From sequence record PZ445420.1: a stretch of 58,073 nt of DNA. One strand, given 5' to 3'. The translations under genes and the position numbers were made by a program. The stretch is from a phage. Every line of letters begins with the position of its first letter. Positions within the stretch are counted from its first letter, which is position 1. Of the stretch, positions 28,939 to 56,428 are shown in pieces. The notes under the pieces are model-generated. The model made no database searches, had not been told where the DNA came from, and saw nothing but the letters and a program-made list of their open reading frames with translations.

Positions 28939-29697
28939 TTATTTACCTTCTTTAACCATTTCAATTTCACGCTCAACGGATGCAATAATATCGTTGAGGT
29001 CTTCCAGTAAGTCTTTATGACCGCGCTCACCCGCACACAGCACTTTCTTCAGTGCATGTTGCATGGGCCCACTGGTTACATTGAATGCTTTAATTACGTC
29101 GTACACGTCAACCCACACATCAATTTCAATCGGGCTACCGTTAATGTCATGTGATTCAAAACTTTTGATTTTGCGCATATATTTATTCGGACGTGGAGCT
29201 TTAATATCCTGGATGCAATCCTTATTAACAAACGCTTCATTAACGAATAGTTCCGGCTCGCCTTCTTTGTCACGATCAACTTTAAAGACGCTCGCAAGTA
29301 CATCTTCCATGATACCAGCTAATTTTTCAGAAGAAGTTTTATGATTTTTAACCACCTCTTCCACTTCTTCCGCTTTCTGTGTCCCGCTAACAGAAGGACT
29401 AATGCGCCATTTGTAAAGCGCATTACGCGGAGGCGTTACATGCGTGTTGTAGACTGTCTTTAAGTTCATAAGATCATTTCCATCCATACCTTCAACAAAG
29501 ACAGTGAGTGCGGGACTGCTATCGTTCAGAACATCTACTAAATATCCTTCTCGAATTACAGATGCAAGAGCTGCATGGGACGCCGCTTGAGAAACTGTGG
29601 TCACATAATGTTTTACAAATCCGTCTTCATCAAACAGACACTGGTTTAACACATTTTCTGGAACAATTTGACCGAGTAATTGAATATGCTTATTCAT
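28939..29697 (-). CDS. hypothetical protein (252 aa) between queE and gat-queC
   Basis: ORF with stop adjacent to gat-queC start; no recognisable catalytic motif. Confidence 0.45.
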   Translation of the reverse strand: MNKHIQLLGQIVPENVLNQCLFDEDGFVKHYVTTVSQAASHAALASVIREGYLVDVLNDSSPALTVFVEGMDGNDLMNLKTVYNTHVTPPRNALYKWRISPSVSGTQKAEEVEEVVKNHKTSSEKLAGIMEDVLASVFKVDRDKEGEPELFVNEAFVNKDCIQDIKAPRPNKYMRKIKSFESHDINGSPIEIDVWVDVYDVIKAFNVTSGPMQHALKKVLCAGERGHKDLLEDLNDIIASVEREIEMVKEGK

Positions 29698-29814
29698 AAC
29701 GATTTACCTTATTAGTTGAACATACCGTGTCTTTTAGCGCGTTGACCGTCACCAGCATAATGATCATTAGCCGCAGCAATCATCCACGCGTTTTTGAATA
29801 TGTATAACTTCACT

Positions 29815-30069
29815 TTACACCTTAGTTAACGTCTGAGTCCAGTCTAGACCTTCAAGATCAACTTTTGCAATCTTCTCGTAATAACCAGCATCAATATCAG
29901 GAACCCAGCGACCATACTCCACATTACAACATATTGGATCGTCTTCGTAACCCATCACAGTTCCGTTTTTATCACAGGCAAGATAGGTGACCCAATTTGG
30001 AACTGTTAAGTTAATACCATGAAACTTAACAACTTTATTAGTTTTAAACAGAGCTTTTACACGCATCAC
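29815..30069 (-). CDS. hypothetical protein
   Basis: 84-aa ORF overlapping queE stop. Confidence 0.4.
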   Translation of the reverse strand: MMRVKALFKTNKVVKFHGINLTVPNWVTYLACDKNGTVMGYEDDPICCNVEYGRWVPDIDAGYYEKIAKVDLEGLDWTQTLTKV

Positions 30070-30854
30070 TCTACACCTAAATATTTGTGAATCTGCAACT
30101 GCACGATGTAATTATGCTTCATTGCGTATTTAACAACAGCTTGAGCGTTTGCTTTGTTAGCAACGTCATCTTGTTCATCCATAGGTTGAAGATAAATCTT
30201 ACCTTTAAAGTGTACAGGTGGACGTGCGATAAATGGTGTCGCACGGTGATCCAGTGCCTGCAACGGTAATCCATCTTCCTCGTTGACGTTTCCACTTTTC
30301 ATTACATATTTGAAAGCATTCGCTCGGGCGGAAACGCTAGGGTGAACCTTTGCTGCCTTAGGACTACATACTACCACACAGTTATAGTTGAGTTCACGCG
30401 GGATAGGCATAGTTCCGTTAGTTTCGACCTGTACGCGATAACCTTTCATATCAATAAGGTAATTGATAAAATTAGCAACTTCAGGTTGACGGAAAGGTTC
30501 GCCGCCAGTAATGACAACTAATTTAGTCTTAGCTTCACCAGTAACACGGACAATCTCTTGCCAAATATCCCTGTGGTTCATCCTCTTACGATTGGACGTG
30601 TAGTTTGTGTCACACCCTGGGCATTGCAGATTACAACCAGCTAATCGAACAAATACGGCAGGTTGACCACAAAATGGGCCTTCGCCTTGAATGGTATGAA
30701 AAATGGAATGCACGTCAAGAATACCACGTTCACGAACTAGCTTCTCAGGTTCCTGAGTATTAATAATTTTCATATGATTTCCAAATTTGACTTGAGCCCA
30801 GTGGTGGGCGATAATGGCTTGTGCAAACATTTGAACCTCGGGGTAAGATAACAA
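30066..30854 (-). CDS. queE: 7-carboxy-7-deazaguanine synthase (radical SAM)
   Basis: 262 aa; CNLQCPGC (CX3CX2C radical-SAM cluster motif); cluster context. Confidence 0.75.
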   Translation of the reverse strand: MLSYPEVQMFAQAIIAHHWAQVKFGNHMKIINTQEPEKLVRERGILDVHSIFHTIQGEGPFCGQPAVFVRLAGCNLQCPGCDTNYTSNRKRMNHRDIWQEIVRVTGEAKTKLVVITGGEPFRQPEVANFINYLIDMKGYRVQVETNGTMPIPRELNYNCVVVCSPKAAKVHPSVSARANAFKYVMKSGNVNEEDGLPLQALDHRATPFIARPPVHFKGKIYLQPMDEQDDVANKANAQAVVKYAMKHNYIVQLQIHKYLGVE

Positions 30855-30898
30855 AGGGGCAGTAAATGCCCCTTCTGAGTTTCCGAAGTATCTACAGA

Positions 30899-31723
30899 TT
30901 ACTCTGCAGTTTTCTGAGACGGAATTTCTACGTTAGCGGCCGCTTGTGCAATATTAGCAGGTACTGGAACGGATACGCGACCAGTAATGCCCATGTATTT
31001 TTTCCAGCGAGCATATTCCGCTTTAACGTTCGCTTCGTTCAGGCCTTTGTCCAGTGCAACAGGCAGAACGTAGCTGATCGGCGCAGTCTGACCCAGCTCC
31101 AGGGTGACAGCGTCAAAGATATCCCATGCAGCACGGCACAGAGTACCGACACCAGGCTTACGAATACCGTTCTGTTCAGGCTCTTTCTTAGCTTCGCGTT
31201 CTGCTGCTTTACGAGCGCGCTCTTCGTCCTGCAGACGTTTCTTCTCAGCGCGTTGTGCGTCACGTTGCGCTTTTTCAGCGGCCTTAGTGGCTTCGCGGGC
31301 AGCGGATACACGACCTTTAACATCTTTCAGAGTGGATTCAATGGAGGAAACCAGATCTTCAGATGCTGCAACGGCAGTTTTCAGCTGATCGTTGTCTTTA
31401 ACTTTACGTGCTGCCGCTTTAACAGCTTTCAGACCTTCTTTAGCGGTCTTCAGTTGAGCGGTAACTACGCCTTCAACTGCTTTAACTTCGTCCAGCAATG
31501 AACCTTCGTTCAGGGTCGCGAACTGTTCTTTAACAGCGGACACAGCACCTTCGATCACATTGTAACCGGCAGTGGCTTCGTTCAATGCGGCGTCAACTTT
31601 AGCCTGCAATTCACGTGCTGCTTTTTCTTCAGCTTCACGTTTTTTCTTTGCTTCAGCTTCTTTTGCTGCTTTCTTTGCAGCTTCTTCTGCTTCCAGTTGT
31701 TCTGGAGTTTTCTCTTTAGCCAT
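30899..31723 (-). CDS. hypothetical protein with Lys/Ala/Glu-rich low-complexity N-terminal two-thirds and globular C-terminal domain
   Basis: 274-aa ORF; strong compositional bias; opposite-strand ORFs here are artefacts of this bias. Confidence 0.5.
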   Translation of the reverse strand: MAKEKTPEQLEAEEAAKKAAKEAEAKKKREAEEKAARELQAKVDAALNEATAGYNVIEGAVSAVKEQFATLNEGSLLDEVKAVEGVVTAQLKTAKEGLKAVKAAARKVKDNDQLKTAVAASEDLVSSIESTLKDVKGRVSAAREATKAAEKAQRDAQRAEKKRLQDEERARKAAEREAKKEPEQNGIRKPGVGTLCRAAWDIFDAVTLELGQTAPISYVLPVALDKGLNEANVKAEYARWKKYMGITGRVSVPVPANIAQAAANVEIPSQKTAE

Positions 31724-31819
31724 GATTTAAATCCTCACAGTGTGGTTATTGGTTGTGAACTACGTTTTAAGTGGTTGCACTATAACCCCTCTAAAAGAAC
31801 TATGCAATATTTTAGTTAA

Positions 31820-32542
31820 TTAATTTAAGCCACGTTCCTTTACCCAGACCCCTAATGTATTACTTGATGTATTACGCTTCACACCTTGTGCCTCTAAACG
31901 ATCCATTATTTGTTTTCTGAGCTGTAGGATTTCCTTCTTGTCACGAGGTTCACCAGCTTCTTTCCACATTTCGTCAGCAACAGCGAAAATAATATCGCGA
32001 GTGCCGGCTGTACGCGACGTTGCGGCACGTTTTTCGCTTGCCAGTGTGCTAGTACCTTGCCGCTCTCTTGTCGGTGTCCATGCCCCTTGTATGCCCATAT
32101 TTGTTTGTACGGTTGGGCCGTCAATGATGGTGGATTCCAATGAACTATCATTCCGTACTTGAATATTAGGCTCCTCCCCCAAATCTGGAACAGAGCTACC
32201 TTCGCGGTACATGCACTCACCCTCTTTATTACTAGCAATTGCCCAGTCCGCTTGTTCAGCCACATCCGCATCTATTACTGTCTCCGGTATTTCATTTAAA
32301 AAGTAATGGATGATCTTACTGATCATTTTCTTTGGATATAAAGCACCTTGCTTATTACCCGTTAAGTTGATGTACAAAAGTTGCATTTGCACATCATCAA
32401 ACTCTTTATGCAGTTCTTCAACTTCTAACGGAAGAACTACAGAACTTTCGCTACAGCATAGAATTCCATACTCGTGAAGACGTTGGAAGTTTGGATGCTT
32501 AGCTAATATCTGCATCCGATCATAATCAATTAAGACGTACAT
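31820..32542 (-). CDS. hypothetical protein
   Basis: 240-aa ORF downstream of helicase gene. Confidence 0.45.
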   Translation of the reverse strand: MYVLIDYDRMQILAKHPNFQRLHEYGILCCSESSVVLPLEVEELHKEFDDVQMQLLYINLTGNKQGALYPKKMISKIIHYFLNEIPETVIDADVAEQADWAIASNKEGECMYREGSSVPDLGEEPNIQVRNDSSLESTIIDGPTVQTNMGIQGAWTPTRERQGTSTLASEKRAATSRTAGTRDIIFAVADEMWKEAGEPRDKKEILQLRKQIMDRLEAQGVKRNTSSNTLGVWVKERGLN

Positions 32543-32562
32543 GTTAGTCCTTCCAATTAAAA

Positions 32563-34566
32563 TTAAAACGGTATGTCGTCATCAAAATCTGGTGGTAGTT
32601 CTTTACCGTTACCAGTAAGAATAGGTTGATTAGACGTAGAATGCAATACCGTCGTACGGGAATCAGTCTGCTCATCTTCATCAAACTTATTCGTATAATT
32701 TCCACCAAACTGGGACAGACCATTCATTGCTGCAATTTGTACGACCGGACGTTCGTTTGTTGCTTCTTTCTTACCGAACTCACTACCGTCATAACAACTA
32801 TTCAACACTTCAGGAAACTTACCCTTCAAGTTGACATAAATGTGCGTCGGTACACGAAGCTGACTGACCACATTGAGGGCTTCGTCAATGTTAGCTGGGA
32901 TTGCCAGGCTACAATGTTCGCGCCACCAGTTACGCGCTTTCTTACCTGCAAAACCAGTGTGGAACAGGCAGATGTATTGTTGAATAGTTTGTGAGCCACA
33001 AAGATAATCAACACGAAGTGTTGGTGGTTTAGAACGGTCACCTCTGTTCTCGTGACGATAGTAACTCACCATATCAACTTTCAGCACTTCGGTAACTGGT
33101 AAATCATTCTTGATAATAGCTTTCGTACTTGCACTCGCCATTAGTTTCTTCTCAAAAGTAAACTCATGACCGCAATAACCAGCACGACACGCTTTATTAT
33201 TTGTGATGGTATAACCTAATCCTTGAAGATAGAGTATTTCTTCATGTGACATGCTGCTTGTGTCGAATGGTTTTAACCCACCACAGAAGCGAACTGACGC
33301 ATGGTTCCATGTTTTACATATTGGGCATTCCTTAACAGGTGCAGCGGATTTTCCTTTCTGCCCTGGACGCTTAGGAATGACAGGGTCATTAATAGGACCA
33401 AGACGTCTTGTGTTACCTGCATAATCCAATACAAGACAGTTCTGTTTATGCGAAGCAGAGATAGCTTGCAAACGACCCTCTGTTGTGGTCAAATCAAAAC
33501 CATCTGCATAATCAGGTCGTGTACCACGTCCAAGCATCTGAACCCACAAACGGGAAGATTGAGATGGTCGCATACCAATTATCAAGTCAAGGCCCGGATG
33601 GTCAAAACCTGTCGTCAATACGTTGTTGTTCGCTATTGCCTGCAAACGACCAGCTTTAAAGTCAATAAGATACTGGTCACGCAATGCTTTCGGTGTATCA
33701 CCAGTTACAACTTCGCAACTAATACCGCGATCATTAAGATAGTCTTTTACATCCTTTGCATGGTCCACACCAGCACAAAAGATAAGCCAACTCATCCTAT
33801 TCTCTTCTTCCGCAATACTAATCGCATCATCTAACAAATGACGTGTTACATCAGGGTCGTTTACAACTTTCTGAAGTTCACTTTCAATGAACTCACCGCC
33901 TCGAGTATGAACACCACTTACATCATACTCTTTCTTTGTTTTACGTGGTACTAACGGAACCAGATAACCTTCATCAATAAACCAGTTGAAGCACTCTACG
34001 GTACACGCGTTAAATACGATTTCATCAAATAAAGCGTTAGGCGCATAATCATCTTTGATAATAGAACCAAAACCAAGACGCCAACTTGTAGCAGTAAGAC
34101 CGATAATCTTTAGATATGGATTCTTTTCACGAATGTGCGCAAAGAATTTCTGATAACTTGTTTGTTGATTTGGACTAATAAGGTCACATTCGTCAACTAT
34201 AATAATATCAACGTCCTCAAAGTATTTAGCTTGTTTTGCAACAGACTGAATACCCGCGAACGTTATCATTGCGTTCTTATCTTTGCGGCCCATACCAGCA
34301 CTGTAAATACCAGTCGGTGCTTCAGGCCACAGCTTCTTAAATTTATCGTGGTTCTGGTCTATCAATTCTTTTACGTGAGTAATTACCATCATGCGGGTAC
34401 TACCCCAATTATCGTGAATTGTCTTTAATAGACCAGCAATTACAAGGGACTTACCAGTCCCCGTAGGCAACAAGATAACAGGATTTCCTGACTTTTCACC
34501 ATGCTTGATGAAATAGCGCAATGTACTATTTACAGCTTCTTGCTGATAATCACGTAGTTTGAACAT
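32563..34566 (-). CDS. SF2 DNA helicase (DEAD/DExD-box-like) with C-terminal DFDDDIPF tail
   Basis: 667 aa; Walker A LPTGTGKS, DECD box, LTAT motif III; Cys-rich segment CPICKTWNHASVRFC; last 8 residues DFDDDIPF. Confidence 0.8.
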   Translation of the reverse strand: MFKLRDYQQEAVNSTLRYFIKHGEKSGNPVILLPTGTGKSLVIAGLLKTIHDNWGSTRMMVITHVKELIDQNHDKFKKLWPEAPTGIYSAGMGRKDKNAMITFAGIQSVAKQAKYFEDVDIIIVDECDLISPNQQTSYQKFFAHIREKNPYLKIIGLTATSWRLGFGSIIKDDYAPNALFDEIVFNACTVECFNWFIDEGYLVPLVPRKTKKEYDVSGVHTRGGEFIESELQKVVNDPDVTRHLLDDAISIAEEENRMSWLIFCAGVDHAKDVKDYLNDRGISCEVVTGDTPKALRDQYLIDFKAGRLQAIANNNVLTTGFDHPGLDLIIGMRPSQSSRLWVQMLGRGTRPDYADGFDLTTTEGRLQAISASHKQNCLVLDYAGNTRRLGPINDPVIPKRPGQKGKSAAPVKECPICKTWNHASVRFCGGLKPFDTSSMSHEEILYLQGLGYTITNNKACRAGYCGHEFTFEKKLMASASTKAIIKNDLPVTEVLKVDMVSYYRHENRGDRSKPPTLRVDYLCGSQTIQQYICLFHTGFAGKKARNWWREHCSLAIPANIDEALNVVSQLRVPTHIYVNLKGKFPEVLNSCYDGSEFGKKEATNERPVVQIAAMNGLSQFGGNYTNKFDEDEQTDSRTTVLHSTSNQPILTGNGKELPPDFDDDIPF

Positions 34567-44281: not shown

Positions 44282-46828
44282 TAACTTAATGACTTCGTTC
44301 ATTCTCTCAATGTCTACCAAATAACATTTCATTCTTGGTGGTACAAAATCAGGACCGAATAAACTTGAGAAGTCCATGGGTCTCATTTCGGCAAGAACTT
44401 CCATAGACATCAGACCATAAATTGTATTGTCTATGACCTGCAATATGTTGTCGTTTCTTGTCTGCTTGAATGCTTTAAATTGCCTACAATAAGTGCATAA
44501 ATCACTCCGTGTGACTATAAATGAGTCCTTAAACATTGGGAACCGTTTATACACGTAAGCCTTTACCTCCCCATCCAAGAACTTCTTGATAGAGTTGAGC
44601 ATTATTTTCTCACGACTTGTACTGTCCGTAGAACCGATTTGCCCACTGTTACGCTTCTCTAAGAAACGCTCGTTACCCTGATCGATAAATGACTCAGCCC
44701 AACGATAATGTTCCATAGTAACAACTGGTCGTTCACTGTTATCCGCAACAGCAAGAAGAGAAGCTATACGCAATACCTTCAACGCTTTCCTTGTGTACAT
44801 CTGACGAATTACTTCGTCTTGCACCTGCTCACCATCATTGCCGCTGTTCAGGAACTTCGCAACAACATTATCAAGATTATCAAAAGCTTCGTGTACCTCT
44901 GCTTCCATTTCAACATAGCATGGAGCAGTCCCTGACATAATACGCACAGCTTGTTTATAGATAGCTCCAATAGTGCGTAGAATTGCTTCTGGATATTCCA
45001 GGAGCATACTTTTATTCATCAACGGTCTGTCAGCTGTACATTCCCATGCGATAATACGGGACATGAAGCCACTCGACATCATGCGGTCATCAACGTTCCC
45101 GTAAAATTCATCCGGTGTCGTTTCACCTGCAAAACTATACGCCTTGACCTTACCGCCAGCAGTCGTATTATCTTTACTAGAGTGCTTTGAACCACCAGAG
45201 AAAGCATAGAAATGCCCCTTGTCATAAAGGGAAAGCATTTCATCCATAATGTCTTTAGCTTTACCGACTTCCATCTTACCGTTACGGAAAAACGCACCGA
45301 CTTCAGTCTTATAGTTAATGGATGAGCCACAAGACATAATGGACGTATCCATTATAACGTCCTTGCGCAATGCAGCATCAGACGCATAGGTACTTGTATC
45401 CAGGACACGTTCAATACCAAATATCTGCTGTCCATCTTGACCGCCATAATTGGATACTTGAGAAAGAATAGTTTCAATGTTAGAGCGAAACGCTTCTTTA
45501 CCAATACCAGAACGTGCAATTAATACAAAGTAGTTATTCAGACCGCTTCGTGTGACTGTGTTCCACGCTTTACCGCACATACCACTAAATAAAGCAAGAG
45601 CAGACAAAATACTAATGTCTTTAATAGGCAACAGGCTCGCTTTATACATATTACGTGCAACCTCGCCCATAAAGCCCGGAGGCCAAGCGAGACCGTCCGC
45701 CTGCTCTTCAGTGTAATTACCATCTGTGGTCAACACTTCTTCAGGTGGGCGTTCTGGTGTAGTTGCTTGACGTAGTTTTTCAGTGCGCTCTATAGCTGCA
45801 TTAACGTTATTCTGAACTATCTGCATAAGTCCCATAGATTTAACATGGGCATCATAGCGATAGTTGCGAATCATTCTATCCAGGTGATACGGACGTTTAA
45901 TTTTTTCACCAGGCAGACGACGGGAATCATCGTAACGACTACTCATTGGTGAATACATGAACAGACGTCTTACCTGGAAATTGTACTTACTCTTAAAGCA
46001 AAGAAAGTCAATTAATGCAAACTCTGCTTCAGACTGAGAAGGGAAACAACGTTCGCCAATAGAAGTATCAACTTCTTCAGCTCTCCAACGACCTTCCCAT
46101 AGCTGCTTAAACAATGTTCCGTTTTCTTGTTCGCACAACTGAATGTAGACATCCTGGTCTTCCATTGCATATGGGTCGTTACTAAAATCTTCTTCAGTAA
46201 GTTCCAGCATTTGGAAGCCATCAGACTCATTAATCTCACTCATCTCAGACATAAGTTGATGAATGAGATTAGCAATATACCCTTCGCTTTCACTGCCTGG
46301 AGCACCAGACACAGTGCGCGGAGTAATATCCCAGTGATCACCTGTACAAATAATGAAGCGATATTGTGAATACACTTCCACACCATCACGGCGCTTACCA
46401 GCCTGAGGGATGGAATAAATCCATGTATGCAGCCCATCTCCACTTCTGGAAATTTCCGTATAACTATGGAACGATTCAACAATTTTCTTATATCGCTCAC
46501 CAGCGACTTTCTTTTCCATTTCAGACATGGTGTCTTTAATATCCATGTCTATACAACAGAACGGGTCACTTGGAAGTAAATAGAAACCTAAACGCAGGTT
46601 ATGACCGATTTCATTATAGTAACGAACACAACGTTCAGCATCTTCAAAAGACATTAATAAATGCAGGTTAGACGGTTTCTTATCATTACCATCTTTACGA
46701 AGTGGGACCATATCCCCTAAATCATCGTCCCATACATAAGGTTGTTTTTCTGATGATGTACCTGGATGGAAACCGCAGACAGCCCACTGTTCGTATTGTT
46801 TAATTTCTTGAGGAAAAAGTTCCAGCAT
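44279..46828 (-). CDS. DNA primase-polymerase (AEP/PrimPol-type N-terminal domain) with large C-terminal domain
   Basis: 849 aa; CCIDMDIKD (DxD) and SGDGLHTWIY (sGxGxH) motifs typical of PrimPol domains. Confidence 0.55.
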   Translation of the reverse strand: MLELFPQEIKQYEQWAVCGFHPGTSSEKQPYVWDDDLGDMVPLRKDGNDKKPSNLHLLMSFEDAERCVRYYNEIGHNLRLGFYLLPSDPFCCIDMDIKDTMSEMEKKVAGERYKKIVESFHSYTEISRSGDGLHTWIYSIPQAGKRRDGVEVYSQYRFIICTGDHWDITPRTVSGAPGSESEGYIANLIHQLMSEMSEINESDGFQMLELTEEDFSNDPYAMEDQDVYIQLCEQENGTLFKQLWEGRWRAEEVDTSIGERCFPSQSEAEFALIDFLCFKSKYNFQVRRLFMYSPMSSRYDDSRRLPGEKIKRPYHLDRMIRNYRYDAHVKSMGLMQIVQNNVNAAIERTEKLRQATTPERPPEEVLTTDGNYTEEQADGLAWPPGFMGEVARNMYKASLLPIKDISILSALALFSGMCGKAWNTVTRSGLNNYFVLIARSGIGKEAFRSNIETILSQVSNYGGQDGQQIFGIERVLDTSTYASDAALRKDVIMDTSIMSCGSSINYKTEVGAFFRNGKMEVGKAKDIMDEMLSLYDKGHFYAFSGGSKHSSKDNTTAGGKVKAYSFAGETTPDEFYGNVDDRMMSSGFMSRIIAWECTADRPLMNKSMLLEYPEAILRTIGAIYKQAVRIMSGTAPCYVEMEAEVHEAFDNLDNVVAKFLNSGNDGEQVQDEVIRQMYTRKALKVLRIASLLAVADNSERPVVTMEHYRWAESFIDQGNERFLEKRNSGQIGSTDSTSREKIMLNSIKKFLDGEVKAYVYKRFPMFKDSFIVTRSDLCTYCRQFKAFKQTRNDNILQVIDNTIYGLMSMEVLAEMRPMDFSSLFGPDFVPPRMKCYLVDIERMNEVIKL

Positions 46829-52442: not shown

Positions 52443-52630
52443 AATGCAATCTCCCTTCGGGTGAGGCGGGCGCGGAACCCGTGTCCCGCTTAAAAACCCC
52501 CTTAACCCTACGCAGTTATAGTATGACAACAGGGTATCAGATGCAACTATTATCTGCATTATTTTAGAACTTTTTTAGTTGTGTTTCATAATAATAACAT
52601 CCGGGACTATACGGTAGATGGTGTGCCGGA

Positions 52631-52696
52631 AATACCAGGTAGCGCGAGCGTGCTGAAAATACCAGGTAACAGCACGCGCCGAACATACCAGGTAGC
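52631..52696. repeat. three direct repeats ATACCAGGTA(A/G)C spaced 26-28 bp
   Basis: Copies at about 52631, 52659, 52685 in non-coding region. Confidence 0.6.
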
Positions 52697-52825
52697 ACAT
52701 ACATAGACAGCACATAGTGGGCAGGTGGATAGTAACAGATGCAATTATACTGGACAGTACAGTATAGTCATGTAATAGATAGCACACTAATCAAATAAAA
52801 AATAATAACGCGTGTAACAATAAAC

Positions 52826-52900
52826 AACGTTATAGTAGAGCGCGCAACAGTCACATGACGTAACAATCACCTCACTGACGATCACGGGACGTTATAGTAA
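52826..52900. repeat. two direct repeats ACGTTATAGTA about 61 bp apart
   Basis: Direct reading of non-coding region. Confidence 0.45.
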
Positions 52901-53047
52901 CGCCGCGGGGCGGCTCTTAGATCTCTGCCAAGGATTCATCGTTTGTAGATTATCTCGTCACTAGACACTTTATATCCTCACCTCACCTGTCCTATATTGT
53001 TCGTATAAAGTTAATTCCGTATGTAAATACTCGAGAGGAGATCTGTT

Positions 53048-53786: not shown

Positions 53787-54124
53787 TGGCTAAAGATATC
53801 GTTATTCCGAAAATGTATTGCCAGCTTCGTGATACTTTATTACAAAGCGGTTGGATTATTAGTCATAGTGACGTGAATGACACATATCTTGTTCTTATAC
53901 CACCTGACGGGACGATATCCTGCATCCTGCATTATATGCCCGAAGCGACGACGGTTTATCCGAACGGGTCGTTCTTACTTCGTTTACGCTCCGATACATG
54001 GAAGATCCAGACGGATACCTGTGCAATTGACGAGAATACCAGTAAAGAATTTATTCGCAAGCTGACTCAGCTGAATAAAATCTATGAGCATGTTAAATTT
54101 GATTTGTTTAAGGAAGTCTTCTAA
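53786..54124 (+). CDS. hypothetical protein
   Basis: 112-aa ORF, ATG overlapping upstream stop. Confidence 0.4.
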   Translation: MAKDIVIPKMYCQLRDTLLQSGWIISHSDVNDTYLVLIPPDGTISCILHYMPEATTVYPNGSFLLRLRSDTWKIQTDTCAIDENTSKEFIRKLTQLNKIYEHVKFDLFKEVF

Positions 54125-54564
54125 TGCTTACTATGAAAGATCCAATTAACCACATCACTCAACCAAATATCATGGCTTGTATTCCGACATGTCTGGCTAT
54201 GTTGACAAGTAAAGATCCTGTTGACGTAGATAGAGAGTTTACTCCTCTTTACAATGAATGTTTACTGGATGTCGCCAGTTATCTATACCGTTACAATATC
54301 TTTGCTCAACCTCACCTGACTGCTGGTATTCATCAAATCCGACCTGGGCGCTTGTATCTTGCGACTGTACCCTCTTTGCAGTTACCTGGACTTTTCCATC
54401 AGATCATTATTGACGCTCGCTTCGGTGATGTTAAGGTATACGACCCATGTAAAGGTCTGCAAGGGAAACAATACTATTCCTATGACCACGTTGCAGAGGG
54501 TAACGATCTGGCGTATCCTCTGCGGTCTTTCCTGATTGATTACGAAATTATATTGCCGGGGTGA
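54124..54564 (+). CDS. hypothetical protein with conserved-looking Cys/His/Asp (possible cysteine peptidase-like)
   Basis: 146 aa; NIMACIPTCLAML ... FHQIIIDARF; assignment speculative. Confidence 0.3.
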   Translation: MLTMKDPINHITQPNIMACIPTCLAMLTSKDPVDVDREFTPLYNECLLDVASYLYRYNIFAQPHLTAGIHQIRPGRLYLATVPSLQLPGLFHQIIIDARFGDVKVYDPCKGLQGKQYYSYDHVAEGNDLAYPLRSFLIDYEIILPG

Positions 54565-54567
54565 TTT

Positions 54568-54921
54568 ATGGGCTTGCAACGTTTTGACAATGCAGAACTC
54601 GCGTGTGAATTTGCAAAGCGCAAGTTTGCTAAAACAGGTACGCCGCGATGCGTACACGCGGCTATTGGGCAAAATGGGGCAAAGTATTGGTACGTTGGTA
54701 CAGTAGCTCAGATCAAGCGAAGATTCGCGACTACGCCCGAAATGCGCCGGCTTGGGTCCCCTACACTTGTGCGAAACAGGCAATTGGATAAAGAGGAAAT
54801 TTATCAATTTCTTAGGAATTACACTGGTAAAGAGAATAGATTTCAGGTTGCAGCGAAAGAGTTTAATATCGGTCTTTCCACTGCTTATAAAATTTATCAC
54901 ATATATGGGCGTTTAATATGA
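54568..54921 (+). CDS. hypothetical protein
   Basis: 117-aa ORF; overlaps next gene. Confidence 0.4.
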   Translation: MGLQRFDNAELACEFAKRKFAKTGTPRCVHAAIGQNGAKYWYVGTVAQIKRRFATTPEMRRLGSPTLVRNRQLDKEEIYQFLRNYTGKENRFQVAAKEFNIGLSTAYKIYHIYGRLI

Positions 54922-55412
54922 CCGCAATTGCTTATCGTAATGGTATATTGGCAGTAGATCGTCAGGTTACATGGGGTAATATTGCAACAACTACGAATAA
55001 AGTTCATACTGTTGATATCCCAGGAATTGGACTGTGCCTTGTTGCAATGTCTGGTAAACTACGTCCTGTAGATGATATTGTAGAACATCTAAAAACTACC
55101 TCGCGAGGACGTAAAGAGCCTTTCTCTGATTTAATTCCGGATTCACGTTATGGTATTGCGGTGACGCAGGAACGTGTCGTGTATCCCATCTACGGCGATG
55201 GTAAATTGGGTCTACCAGACACTAATGAATTTATTGCGGAAGGTAGCGCGTTTGAGTTCTTGATGGGTACAATGGCGGCAGGTTGCGGAGCAGAAGAGGC
55301 TGTAAGATTGGCCTGTCATTACTGCGATAGCTGTGGTCAGGGTGTTGACTTCTATGACGTAGCTTATACTCTTAAGATGGCTCAGTGTACAGACGAGGAG
55401 GAACCATTTTGA
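54918..55412 (+). CDS. HslV-like / proteasome beta-type Ntn-hydrolase peptidase homolog
   Basis: 164 aa; N-terminus MTAIAYRNGILAVDRQVTWGN...NK parallels E. coli HslV [25 protein letters not shown]...KK (Thr after Met, D-x-Q-x-T-x-GN, Lys about 30); later IAEGSA parallels IAIGSG. Confidence 0.55.
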   Translation: MTAIAYRNGILAVDRQVTWGNIATTTNKVHTVDIPGIGLCLVAMSGKLRPVDDIVEHLKTTSRGRKEPFSDLIPDSRYGIAVTQERVVYPIYGDGKLGLPDTNEFIAEGSAFEFLMGTMAAGCGAEEAVRLACHYCDSCGQGVDFYDVAYTLKMAQCTDEEEPF

Positions 55413-55600
55413 AGAAGCCTAAGACTGGTCTGTTCCTTTGTATTGGTGGACCTTTTGACGGTAAGCGTATACGCTTAACAACATCGGATCTATATCCAAG
55501 TTCCTCCGTTTTCTCTGTTCCATCCTATAAAAATGGTGAGAAGGGGAAATACGTTTGGAATGATGAAATTCGAAATAGTGTAATCTGGAGAACATCATGA
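55409..55600 (+). CDS. hypothetical protein (TTG start 7 nt after GAGGAGG; ORF track gives 55385..55600)
   Basis: about 63 aa; start overlaps stop of HslV-like gene. Confidence 0.3.
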   Translation: MKKPKTGLFLCIGGPFDGKRIRLTTSDLYPSSSVFSVPSYKNGEKGKYVWNDEIRNSVIWRTS

Positions 55601-55824
55601 GTGATCCTTCTGACGCACAATTAGCGGCTGCAAGAGTGTATATGCGCGGAGCTGCCGCTGAGATTGAGGCCTTGCCACAATTCGAGAAGCACGTACAGCA
55701 ACTTGAAGATAAATTCAAGGCTCTTAAAGACTTAGGGGATAACAAGGACGCCATAGCATTTCTTTTTGCTCTTCAATACTTTGTCATGGGGTCTGATGAG
55801 AAACTATGTTCCTTAGAAGAATAA
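55597..55824 (+). CDS. hypothetical protein
   Basis: 75-aa ORF. Confidence 0.35.
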   Translation: MSDPSDAQLAAARVYMRGAAAEIEALPQFEKHVQQLEDKFKALKDLGDNKDAIAFLFALQYFVMGSDEKLCSLEE

Positions 55825-56306
55825 TTGGTATTGTTGCACCTTGGATACCACTTGTCATAATTGTTATTCTAGCCAACTGGGCTTATGACAATGCCATAGA
55901 ATCAGCTAGAAAGGAGGGTTTCGATGCCGGTGTGTCGTACCAAAAAGAAACTCAGAAAGCGGTTGATTTCGAGGAGGAGAAACGAAGAGCGTATGAGAAA
56001 GATACTATCGAACGTCAGTACAGATCTCGTATTGAATCTTTGGTTGCCGATCTTAATAATTATCGCGCTACTAATGACAGGTTGCACAACGAAATCGCAA
56101 CCGTCCGTAAGTACCTCGGTGACGCTACCGGCCCTCAGCCCGACAGCAAGACAACCGCCCAGATCGCCCGTGTGCTCACCGAGCTGTATTCAGAAAGCGT
56201 CACAGAATACAGACAAGTGGCAGAAGAGGCTGAAAAGTATCGTATTGCCGGCGAGCAGTGCGAACTACAATATGATGCAATGCGAAATCCGCGTAAAGCA
56301 AATTGA
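55806..56306 (+). CDS. i-spanin (Rz-like)
   Basis: 166 aa; N-terminal TM segment IIGIVAPWIPLVIIVILANWAY then charged coiled-coil; o-spanin-like ORF in +1 frame. Confidence 0.6.
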   Translation: MFLRRIIGIVAPWIPLVIIVILANWAYDNAIESARKEGFDAGVSYQKETQKAVDFEEEKRRAYEKDTIERQYRSRIESLVADLNNYRATNDRLHNEIATVRKYLGDATGPQPDSKTTAQIARVLTELYSESVTEYRQVAEEAEKYRIAGEQCELQYDAMRNPRKAN

Positions 56307-56337
56307 TAAACTGCAAAGTCCTTGTCGGGTTGCGTAA
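55993..56337 (+). CDS. o-spanin (Rz1-like lipoprotein) overlapping i-spanin gene
   Basis: Alternate frame; signal-like MRKIL...LPILIIIALLMTGC with lipobox Cys (codon 56083-56085) followed by Pro/Ser-rich segment. Confidence 0.55.
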   Translation: MRKILSNVSTDLVLNLWLPILIIIALLMTGCTTKSQPSVSTSVTLPALSPTARQPPRSPVCSPSCIQKASQNTDKWQKRLKSIVLPASSANYNMMQCEIRVKQIDKLQSPCRVA

Positions 56338-56428
56338 CTAAACGTTCAATCTTAATTGCACATAATTGATTGTGTACATCTGATAATTCAACTATGCTCT
56401 ATTCGGTTTAACTGAATGGAGCTTTTTT

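Follow-up and report, generated by a model that had tools for sequence, protein, structure and literature searches.

The sequence record PZ445420.1 describes phage DNA of 58,073 nucleotides, which is called the window here. An open reading frame (ORF) at positions 54918-55412 of its plus strand (stop codon counted) encodes a protein of 164 amino acids, termed the peptidase in the following. This protein is certainly a proteasome-like N-terminal nucleophile (Ntn) hydrolase by fold and ancestry, and it is very probably an active Ntn peptidase of the PPH type, a family described by Fuchs, Alva & Lupas together with other proteasome homologues. On balance we favor the reading that the protein is a PPH-family Ntn-threonine peptidase which is expressed late and works independently of HslU; removal of its methionine would activate it, it probably self-assembles through its helices H3 and H4, and it would act on peptides, unfolded proteins or a specific target. 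The original prediction had described an HslV-like, proteasome beta-type peptidase. This description holds for the superfamily of N-terminal-threonine peptidases formed by the proteasome beta subunits and HslV, and it does not hold for HslV (ClpQ, the peptidase of HslVU) in the strict sense.

The peptidase ORF starts at the earliest start codon past an in-frame stop codon, which makes an in-frame start further upstream impossible. Consequently, Thr2 directly follows the initiator methionine. The genome is that of a 9g-like Nonagvirus (Queuovirinae), and in the peptidase region it shares 91-93% nucleotide identity with JenK1, FritzHoffmann, 9g, SE1 and others. Orthologues of the peptidase with 87-95% amino acid identity were found in 17 GenBank/RefSeq records representing 11 distinct phages. 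The ratio of nonsynonymous to synonymous substitution rates (dN/dS) among the Nonagvirus orthologues was 0.07-0.17, which indicates purifying selection. Judged by these rates, the ORF is a real and functional gene. The orthologue of phage 9g (NC_024146.1, 30245-30738) carries a one-base deletion at alignment column 174, and its annotated part comprises the last 83 codons. Most likely a sequencing error in the homopolymer, and not true pseudogenization, accounts for this frameshift. As the deletion sits in an A-run (CATCT-AAAACT), the broken copy was rejected as weak evidence for dispensability; if the frameshift were real, the peptidase gene would be dispensable in the laboratory.

The RefSeq orthologues are labelled 'peptidase HslV family', and one GenBank record reads 'proteasome subunit alpha type-2'. 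The former label was traced to PHROG_1040, which the peptidase matches with an E-value of 2.2e-35, and the term 'HslV family' should be read at the level of the superfamily only. Both the orthologue group of Nonagvirus, through its RefSeq and PHROG labels, and the PPH family, since 2021, are thus already known, and the novelty supposed in the original prediction was overrated.

The AlphaFold2 model of the peptidase (predicted local distance difference test, pLDDT, 91.8; predicted TM-score 0.87) exhibited the proteasome-beta fold with the alpha-beta-beta-alpha sandwich of Ntn hydrolases. A Foldseek search of the PDB with this model gave 111 matches at E<=1e-3, and all 50 of the matches listed were proteasome-family chains. 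The best E-values were obtained for BPH (PDB 5OVU/5OVS; 2.9e-6) and Anbu (1e-5), followed by HslV (1.5e-5) and archaeal and yeast 20S beta subunits (about 3e-5), with an overall span to 1e-4. TM-scores were about 0.6 throughout at sequence identities of 12-20%. As far as the model can tell, the peptidase is roughly equidistant structurally from the BPH, Anbu, HslV and 20S beta branches.

Searches with single sequences revealed none of this relationship. The peptidase sequence gave no match in Pfam, in NCBIfam or in a phmmer search of the PDB, and E. coli HslV, taken from NC_000913.3, gave nothing at the peptidase locus when compared with the window by BLAST. Since these searches remained empty, the homology becomes visible through PHROGs, a family profile or structure. 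With a profile of 18 close relatives the matches in the PDB were still marginal, proteasome beta and HslV chains appearing at E-values of 0.02-0.2 with importin as the top chance match. An exhaustive HMMER search collected 3,696 cluster representatives at E<=1e-3 (342 of them at <=1e-10) with a median length of 151 amino acids. A profile built from 60 sequences of this family then matched Thermotoga maritima HslV with an E-value of 6.7e-9; for other HslVs and for yeast beta5 the values were about 1e-7 to 1e-6, whereas BPH was reached with 2.8e-5 over positions 71-147 only. In hhalign the family profile aligned over the full length with E. coli HslV (probability 96.1%, E 3e-9). Among the 60 relatives themselves, 13 matched the Pfam Proteasome family, 10 the archaeal beta-subunit model and 3-4, weakly, HslV models. 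The parallel to E. coli HslV, which had been claimed to extend residue by residue, therefore applies to the motifs and the fold and not to the overall sequence.

The peptidase aligns to positions 14-171 of the 277 positions of the PHROG_1040 profile. Several phage relatives are about 100 amino acids longer, and the BFVD matches A0A2I7R6C7, A0A5B9NBU4 and A0A6G5YGZ5 comprise 275-279 residues. PHROG_1040 probably mixes PPH with a C-terminally extended, RPC-like form.

All elements of a proteasome-like active site were found in the peptidase (positions in Table 1). Thr2, Asp14, Lys28 and Gly46 correspond to the Thr, Asp, Lys and Gly that characterize the superfamily of proteasome-like Ntn hydrolases. 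As noticed in the original prediction, the threonine right after the methionine, the D-x-Q-x-T-x-GN block, the lysine (K28) and the GS(G/A) segment are present, and all of them align with authentic E. coli HslV, where the block D14-R-Q-V-T-W-G-N21 finds its counterpart in D-G-Q-A-T-L-G-N and the aligned N-terminal residues are TT. Conservation was determined in an alignment of 158 relatives in which the family has diverged to about 25-30% identity. Position 2 is Thr in 154 and Ser in the other 4 relatives. Asp14 is kept in 153, Lys28 and Gly46 in 157 each and Gly109 in all 158 of them, and Ser110 is retained in 115.

A Met-Thr start was observed in 134 of the 147 listed relatives, which indicates that there is no propeptide. 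Consequently, removal of Met1 must expose the nucleophile. Methionine aminopeptidase accepts Thr at position 2, and we infer that the host enzyme removes Met1 of the peptidase, by which Thr2 would be exposed in the same simple way as the threonine of HslV.

These data bear on the proposal that the protein might be inactive or a decoy, that is, a catalytically dead inhibitor which co-assembles with or titrates host HslV or HslU and thereby stabilizes HslVU substrates. The proposal starts from the observation that the phage lacks an HslU gene of its own, and no specific tool result stands behind it. Because the catalytic positions are near-invariant (97-100% conserved at about 25-30% identity), which would be unexpected if catalysis were dispensable, and because the gene is under purifying selection, the sequences argue strongly for catalysis. 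In addition, conservation is lacking at the surfaces with which a decoy would have to imitate HslV towards HslU. We therefore consider a decoy extremely improbable.

The home family of the peptidase was determined by comparison with the proteasome homologues compiled by Fuchs, Alva & Lupas (Bioinformatics 2021; PMC8665760), who described 22 new ones. According to these authors, PPH proteins comprise about 140 residues, belong to group I beside BPH and HslV, have no propeptide, use Thr1/Asp17/Lys33 together with Gly47 and lack the C-terminal elements S12 and H5. They occur in Caudovirales and, in proteobacterial hosts, almost always in prophages, with Pseudoalteromonas and Mesorhizobium as exceptions. 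Helix H2 is missing in PPH and RPC only among the families (PMC8665760).

The same traits were observed for the peptidase and its relatives. With 164 residues, a Met-Thr start and no extra C-terminal domain, the protein is small, as is the family as a whole. DSSP assignment of the AlphaFold2 model placed a helix at residues 48-58 and a strand at residues 77-83 with no helix between them, and the loop that takes the place of H2 was modelled with a pLDDT of 89-95. Profile alignments showed gaps opposite helix H2 of HslV, and the segment from the oxyanion glycine to the next strand measures 32 residues (5-95% range: 27-37) in the 158 relatives versus 44 in E. coli HslV. The host range agrees as well. 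Relatives were found in 32 phage records, IMG/VR yielded 161 confirmed matches (the best 80 of the 161 were kept as loci), and 27 loci are bacterial, nearly all of them from Proteobacteria including Mesorhizobium; at least 9 of these lie inside a recognizable prophage head module. The departures from the published description are minor. Members of the Nonagvirus clade are about 15-20 residues longer, which goes along with a short, poorly conserved predicted C-terminal helix at residues 148-160, and they possess a clade-specific cysteine cluster, Cys133-x2-Cys136-x2-Cys139. The peptidase thus fits the PPH family, to which it was assigned by descriptive traits and not by clustering with the representative WP_042125023.1 (KEGG OC.1434257).

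The cysteine cluster (L-A-C-H-Y-C-D-S-C-G; window 55314-55334, plus strand) lies at the end of helix H4 of the peptidase. Of the 18 close relatives, at least 90% share Cys139 and Cys40, but the wider family does not retain the cluster. A function as metal or disulfide site is conceivable.

Other families were considered and rejected. RPC, which also lacks H2, possesses an additional C-terminal domain that is absent from the peptidase. AAH and CPH both keep H2. Connectase lacks H1 as well and carries an insertion at the active site. BPH was not accepted because H2 is missing from the peptidase, which is also shorter, and because the profile match was weak; in BPH and Anbu all four helices are present and the length is about 185-240 amino acids (about 185-200 for the BPH subunit), and BPH is further distinguished by a long acidic pore loop and heptameric double rings. 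The curated HslV models TIGR03692 and NF003964 gave no match above threshold for the peptidase, and they likewise missed 53-56 of the 60 relatives. Strict HslV has four flanking helices, H1-H4, of which the peptidase lacks H2; in HslV the face made up of H1 and H2 is the surface on which HslU docks. Because H2 is absent, the curated models failed and the structure is equally near to BPH and Anbu, the peptidase is HslV at the level of the superfamily only.

The absence of a cognate HslU from the window, noted in the original prediction, was borne out. E. coli HslU produced only noise in a tblastn search of the window (best E-value 0.93), and the only Walker-A ORFs of at least 150 residues in the window are the large terminase, a 633-residue ORF and a Sak4-like protein. 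The annotation of JenK1 contains no AAA+ unfoldase and no HslU relative. No HslU relative was found in about 1 Mb of sequence around 112 family members, and no ATPase recurs as a neighbor of family members. This agrees with the report of Fuchs et al. 2021 that no co-occurring AAA+ interactors were found (PMC8665760).

The peptidase might instead use the HslU of its host, as had also been proposed, and so act as a functional substitute for HslV which docks on the host ATPase and forms a hybrid phage-host HslVU of altered or boosted activity. Proteobacterial hosts usually have HslU, the E. coli host carries hslVU, and the family is largely proteobacterial. The family profile points in the same direction, since HslV chains are its top sequence matches among solved structures and its alignment with E. 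coli HslV extends over the full length. The docking site, however, argues against such a complex. In HslVU the C-terminal tails of HslU enter pockets between HslV subunits that are formed by Phe54, Phe57, Ala79/Lys80 and Gln114 (PMC6429459). In the 158 relatives, these positions map, in an alignment of about 25% identity, to E/Q/D (Phe54), L/V/I (Phe57), a variable residue (Ala79), mostly a gap (Lys80) and again a variable residue (Gln114); in the peptidase itself they are occupied by Asp52, Val55, Phe69/Ser70 and Thr102. Helix H2, which bears the pocket residues 79 and 80 in HslV, is gone from the family. The HslU C-termini, unlike the mapped pocket, are highly conserved (PMC6429459). Moreover, the structure is no nearer to HslV than to BPH and Anbu, which have no known ATPase partner, and the curated HslV models missed peptidase and relatives alike. 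Because H2 was lost and the residues of the tail pocket are not conserved, a hybrid with host HslU is regarded as unlikely. Strict HslV is set apart from the peptidase by its tail pocket and by the linkage to hslU, which was found neither in the window nor at 113 loci. That the peptidase works without HslU is rather probable, and the partner-less homologues BPH and Anbu were adopted as the working model.

Outside the catalytic residues, conservation in the family is highest in the H3/H4 region, which reads G117-A-M-A-A-G122-A-S-A125..A128-V129..A132 in the peptidase, with the motif G-A-M-A-A-G-A-S-A...E-A-V. In proteasomes the helices H3 and H4 mediate ring-ring contacts (PMC8665760). The conservation of this region hints at self-assembly of the peptidase, which would probably form a small oligomer through these helices.

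A monomeric or dimeric enzyme was weighed against such an oligomer. The peptidase would then be a sequence-specific processing peptidase, transpeptidase or amidase comparable to connectase, a member of the same superfamily, and not a bulk protease. Its small size and the partial loss of the H1/H2 helix layer would suit this, and connectase, which lost both helices and is monomeric (PMC8665760), demonstrates that a reduced helix layer is compatible with a sequence-specific enzyme that forms no ring. The two small genes that overlap the peptidase gene (Table 1), and to which it is translationally coupled, might encode substrates or regulators. They are not conserved outside the Queuovirinae, however. 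Furthermore, the peptidase retains H1 and lacks the helical insertion between S3 and S4 that covers the active site of connectase and confers its specificity, its best structural matches are the ring-forming BPH, Anbu and HslV, and conservation is focused on just those helices that connect rings in proteasomes. We consider a connectase-like enzyme very unlikely.

As stated in the original prediction, the peptidase gene is located in an operon upstream of the lysis genes for spanin, endolysin and holin; this was evident from the ORF map and from the annotation of JenK1. The gene lies about 2 kb into a plus-strand region which starts after a gap at 52.56-53.05 kb. Divergent early and late promoters were predicted by Kulikov et al. 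2014 (PMC4276943) for the corresponding part of the 9g genome, and these authors classed all genes downstream of it as late morphogenesis and lysis genes. The operon of the window, which is tightly packed, begins with a 95-residue ORF, followed by genes for unknown proteins of 121 and 112 residues, the genes for a 146-residue and a 117-residue protein and the peptidase gene. Two further unknowns of 63 and 75 residues, spanin, a hairpin, endolysin, holin and a 78-residue ORF come next. Downstream of the peptidase gene, the spanin gene follows after about 400 bp and the terminase genes after about 2.5 kb. In JenK1 and in Klebsiella phage vB_Kpn2-P2 the small-terminase gene comes next, to which the ORF at the 3'-end of the window (from 57843) would correspond by position, and the window opens with a 532-residue Walker-A ORF (1-1599) that matches the large terminase of JenK1 in length. 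The arrangement of the operon is kept in seven Queuovirinae loci (L004, L005, L007, L044, L052, L067 and L077).

The favored mechanism can be put together as follows. Host methionine aminopeptidase would free Thr2 as the nucleophile, and the peptidase would then act without HslU, as BPH and Anbu do, in the form of a small self-assembled oligomer. Its substrates would be peptides, unfolded proteins or one specific protein, cleaved late in infection during virion assembly and the preparation of lysis. Confidence in any particular substrate is low.

The genomic neighborhoods of the distant relatives suggest a connection with the late genes, too. The related loci were gathered with a tighter subgroup alignment and are biased towards alphaproteobacterial-type members. 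No obligate partner gene was detected, since even the most widespread neighbor clusters were confined to about 9 of 85 loci at most, and antisense shadow ORFs accounted for the largest 'cluster'. Head, packaging, connector or tail genes made up 18 of the 20 most recurrent annotated neighbor clusters; of the other two, one had no PHROG match and one comprised minus-strand ORFs that could not be annotated. A virion-module gene was present on the same strand within 4 kb in at least 51 of 84 loci (34 of 63 lineages), counts that stand without a baseline for the proximity of random phage genes to structural genes. Recurrent gene orders were large terminase (TerL)-PPH-portal-...-scaffold, portal-scaffold-x-PPH-major capsid and major capsid-PPH-Ad1-Hc1. 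A virion-module context of PPH is not mentioned by Fuchs et al. (PMC8665760). It is fair to say that PPH genes, like accessory late genes, are mostly but not exclusively tied to late virion-assembly modules. A weak Pfam match to Cpn10, a GroES-like co-chaperonin, was observed in a same-strand neighbor in two lineages of the viral loci (best E-value 1e-4); if real, it would fit a theme of protein quality control.

From this context a more specific role could be derived, in which the peptidase is a virion-assembly protease on a proteasome fold. By trimming or removing scaffold, capsid or portal proteins, or by clearing misassembled capsid protein, it would take the role of the HK97- or ClpP-type prohead proteases of other phages. 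The recurrent head-module neighbors and gene orders agree with this role. In Nonagvirus JenK1 a scaffolding protein is present, and none of the genes is annotated as a prohead protease. In a Pfam scan of 149 pooled neighbors, with one representative per lineage, canonical prohead-protease families were absent from the 25 commonest of 85 families, single occurrences being possible. The canonical prohead proteases themselves (HK97 gp4, S78; the ClpP-like S14/S49; T4 gp21, U9) have a herpesvirus-protease or ClpP fold and an active site of the Ser/His type; they were ruled out as relatives by the Ntn sandwich and the threonine nucleophile, and the peptidase matched none of their families in Pfam or PHROGs. 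On the other hand, PPH has no fixed place within the head modules, not even when related modules are compared; accessory genes typically behave in this way, core morphogenesis genes do not. Some lineages place the gene among replication genes. In the window the lysis cassette and the terminase genes separate the peptidase from the head genes. Phages with P22- or T7-type scaffolds require no protease at all. The neighbor counts have no random-gene baseline, and there is no evidence for processing of the Nonagvirus capsid or scaffold. A role as virion-assembly protease is therefore rated as decidedly unlikely. The same holds for the broader proposal that PPH represents a previously unrecognized class of ATPase-free virion-assembly or late quality-control proteases on the proteasome fold, accompanied in Queuovirinae by the C39-like peptidase described below, which we find quite improbable. 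Under this proposal PPH would be produced along with the proteins for packaging, head and lysis, and its targets would be scaffolding, capsid or misassembled late proteins.

Several observations also weigh against the favored reading of a late, self-assembling and HslU-independent peptidase. Subunits without H2 might be unable to form rings. Among the solved structures, the best sequence match is nominally HslV, HslU is available in the E. coli host, and the mapping of the pocket residues rests on the low-identity alignment mentioned above. Late expression was deduced from the gene order and from the promoters predicted in phage 9g, whereas sigma-70-like promoter matches in the window, including the 52560-53047 region, were not above shuffled expectation. 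Some lineages place the gene beside 5'-3' exonuclease, DnaB, dGTP diphosphohydrolase or HNH genes and hence in the context of replication and nucleotide metabolism. Finally, the searchable literature offered no biochemical or genetic data on any PPH member, and experimental studies were likewise not found for phage HslV-like proteins or for expression and proteomics in Queuovirinae.

The genes surrounding the peptidase gene add further features (Table 1). The 146-residue protein encoded upstream carries the invariant residues Gln13-x5-Cys19, His92, Asp97 and Asp107. Its AlphaFold2 model (pLDDT 92.3) found the C39 domains of PCAT1, AvrPphB, staphopain and Josephin as best Foldseek matches (E-value 6e-3, TM-score about 0.55). 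According to this model the protein is probably a C39-like cysteine peptidase; the Queuovirinae operon would therefore encode two unrelated predicted peptidases. All 8 loci of the neighbor cluster concerned (cluster 11) combine this gene with that of the Ntn peptidase, a pairing that was not found outside the Queuovirinae.

The product of the 117-residue gene showed sub-threshold matches to HTH_7 and HTH_23 at residues of about 70-113, a weak helix-turn-helix signal. Its positional counterpart in vB_Kpn2-P2 is annotated, by annotation only, as 'late transcriptional activator', and Kulikov et al. (PMC4276943) mention that a putative regulator of 9g is transcribed along with the late genes. The hairpin is situated between the end of the spanin gene (56306) and the start of the endolysin gene (56429). 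It could split a unit of the unknown genes, peptidase and spanin from an endolysin-holin unit, or attenuate read-through. The o-spanin candidate exhibits a lipobox-like L-M-T-G-C after a hydrophobic stretch; an embedded or overlapping o-spanin is expected here and is annotated in FritzHoffmann. JenK1 further contains an annotated cluster for 7-deazaguanine (queuosine/archaeosine-type) DNA modification on its minus strand (record 29114-34290), typical of Queuovirinae, and a 92-residue ORF labelled 'protease' in its early region (record 46426-46704). PADLOC revealed no relation to known defence-system proteins; a weak RmrT match of a neighbor (E-value 0.0065) was judged to be noise.

Table 1. 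Positions of active-site codons, structural elements and neighboring features in the window.
Feature	Position	Strand	Remarks
Thr2 codon	54921-54923	+	predicted N-terminal nucleophile after loss of Met1; corresponds to Thr1 of HslV/proteasome
Asp14 codon	54957-54959	+	corresponds to catalytic Asp17; aligned to E. coli HslV Asp17
Lys28 codon	54999-55001	+	corresponds to catalytic Lys33; aligned to E. coli HslV Lys33
Gly46 codon	55053-55055	+	corresponds to oxyanion-hole glycine (proteasome Gly47); role from PMC8665760
Non-helical loop, residues 59-76	55092-55145	+	at the place of helix H2; DSSP of AlphaFold2 model
Gly109-Ser110-Ala111 codons	55242-55250	+	corresponds to HslV G-S-G segment Gly123-Ser124-Gly125
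Intergenic region	52560-53047	.	between minus-strand (early) genes and plus-strand operon; ORF map
146-residue probable papain-fold (C39-like) cysteine peptidase	54124-54564	+	PHROG_4049 ('unknown function')
117-residue gene	54568-54921	+	PHROG_17085; stop overlaps peptidase start (ATGA)
63-residue gene	55409-55600	+	PHROG_12090; TTG start overlaps peptidase stop (TTGA); annotated in JenK1
Embedded/overlapping o-spanin (Rz1-type) candidate	55924-56337	+	other frame; overlaps Rz-like i-spanin 55806-56306
Hairpin	56396-56422	+	12-bp stem, then TTTTTT; terminator-like; only one of note in scan

As an ordinary orthologue of a described group the peptidase adds little as a discovery, and it is its function that matters. 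The phage is a virulent phage of E. coli K-12 with about 93% identity to isolates of the BASEL collection, which places it among the most tractable systems for the function of a viral proteasome homologue. The same system could show whether minimal subunits without H2 form rings and whether a host ATPase takes part.

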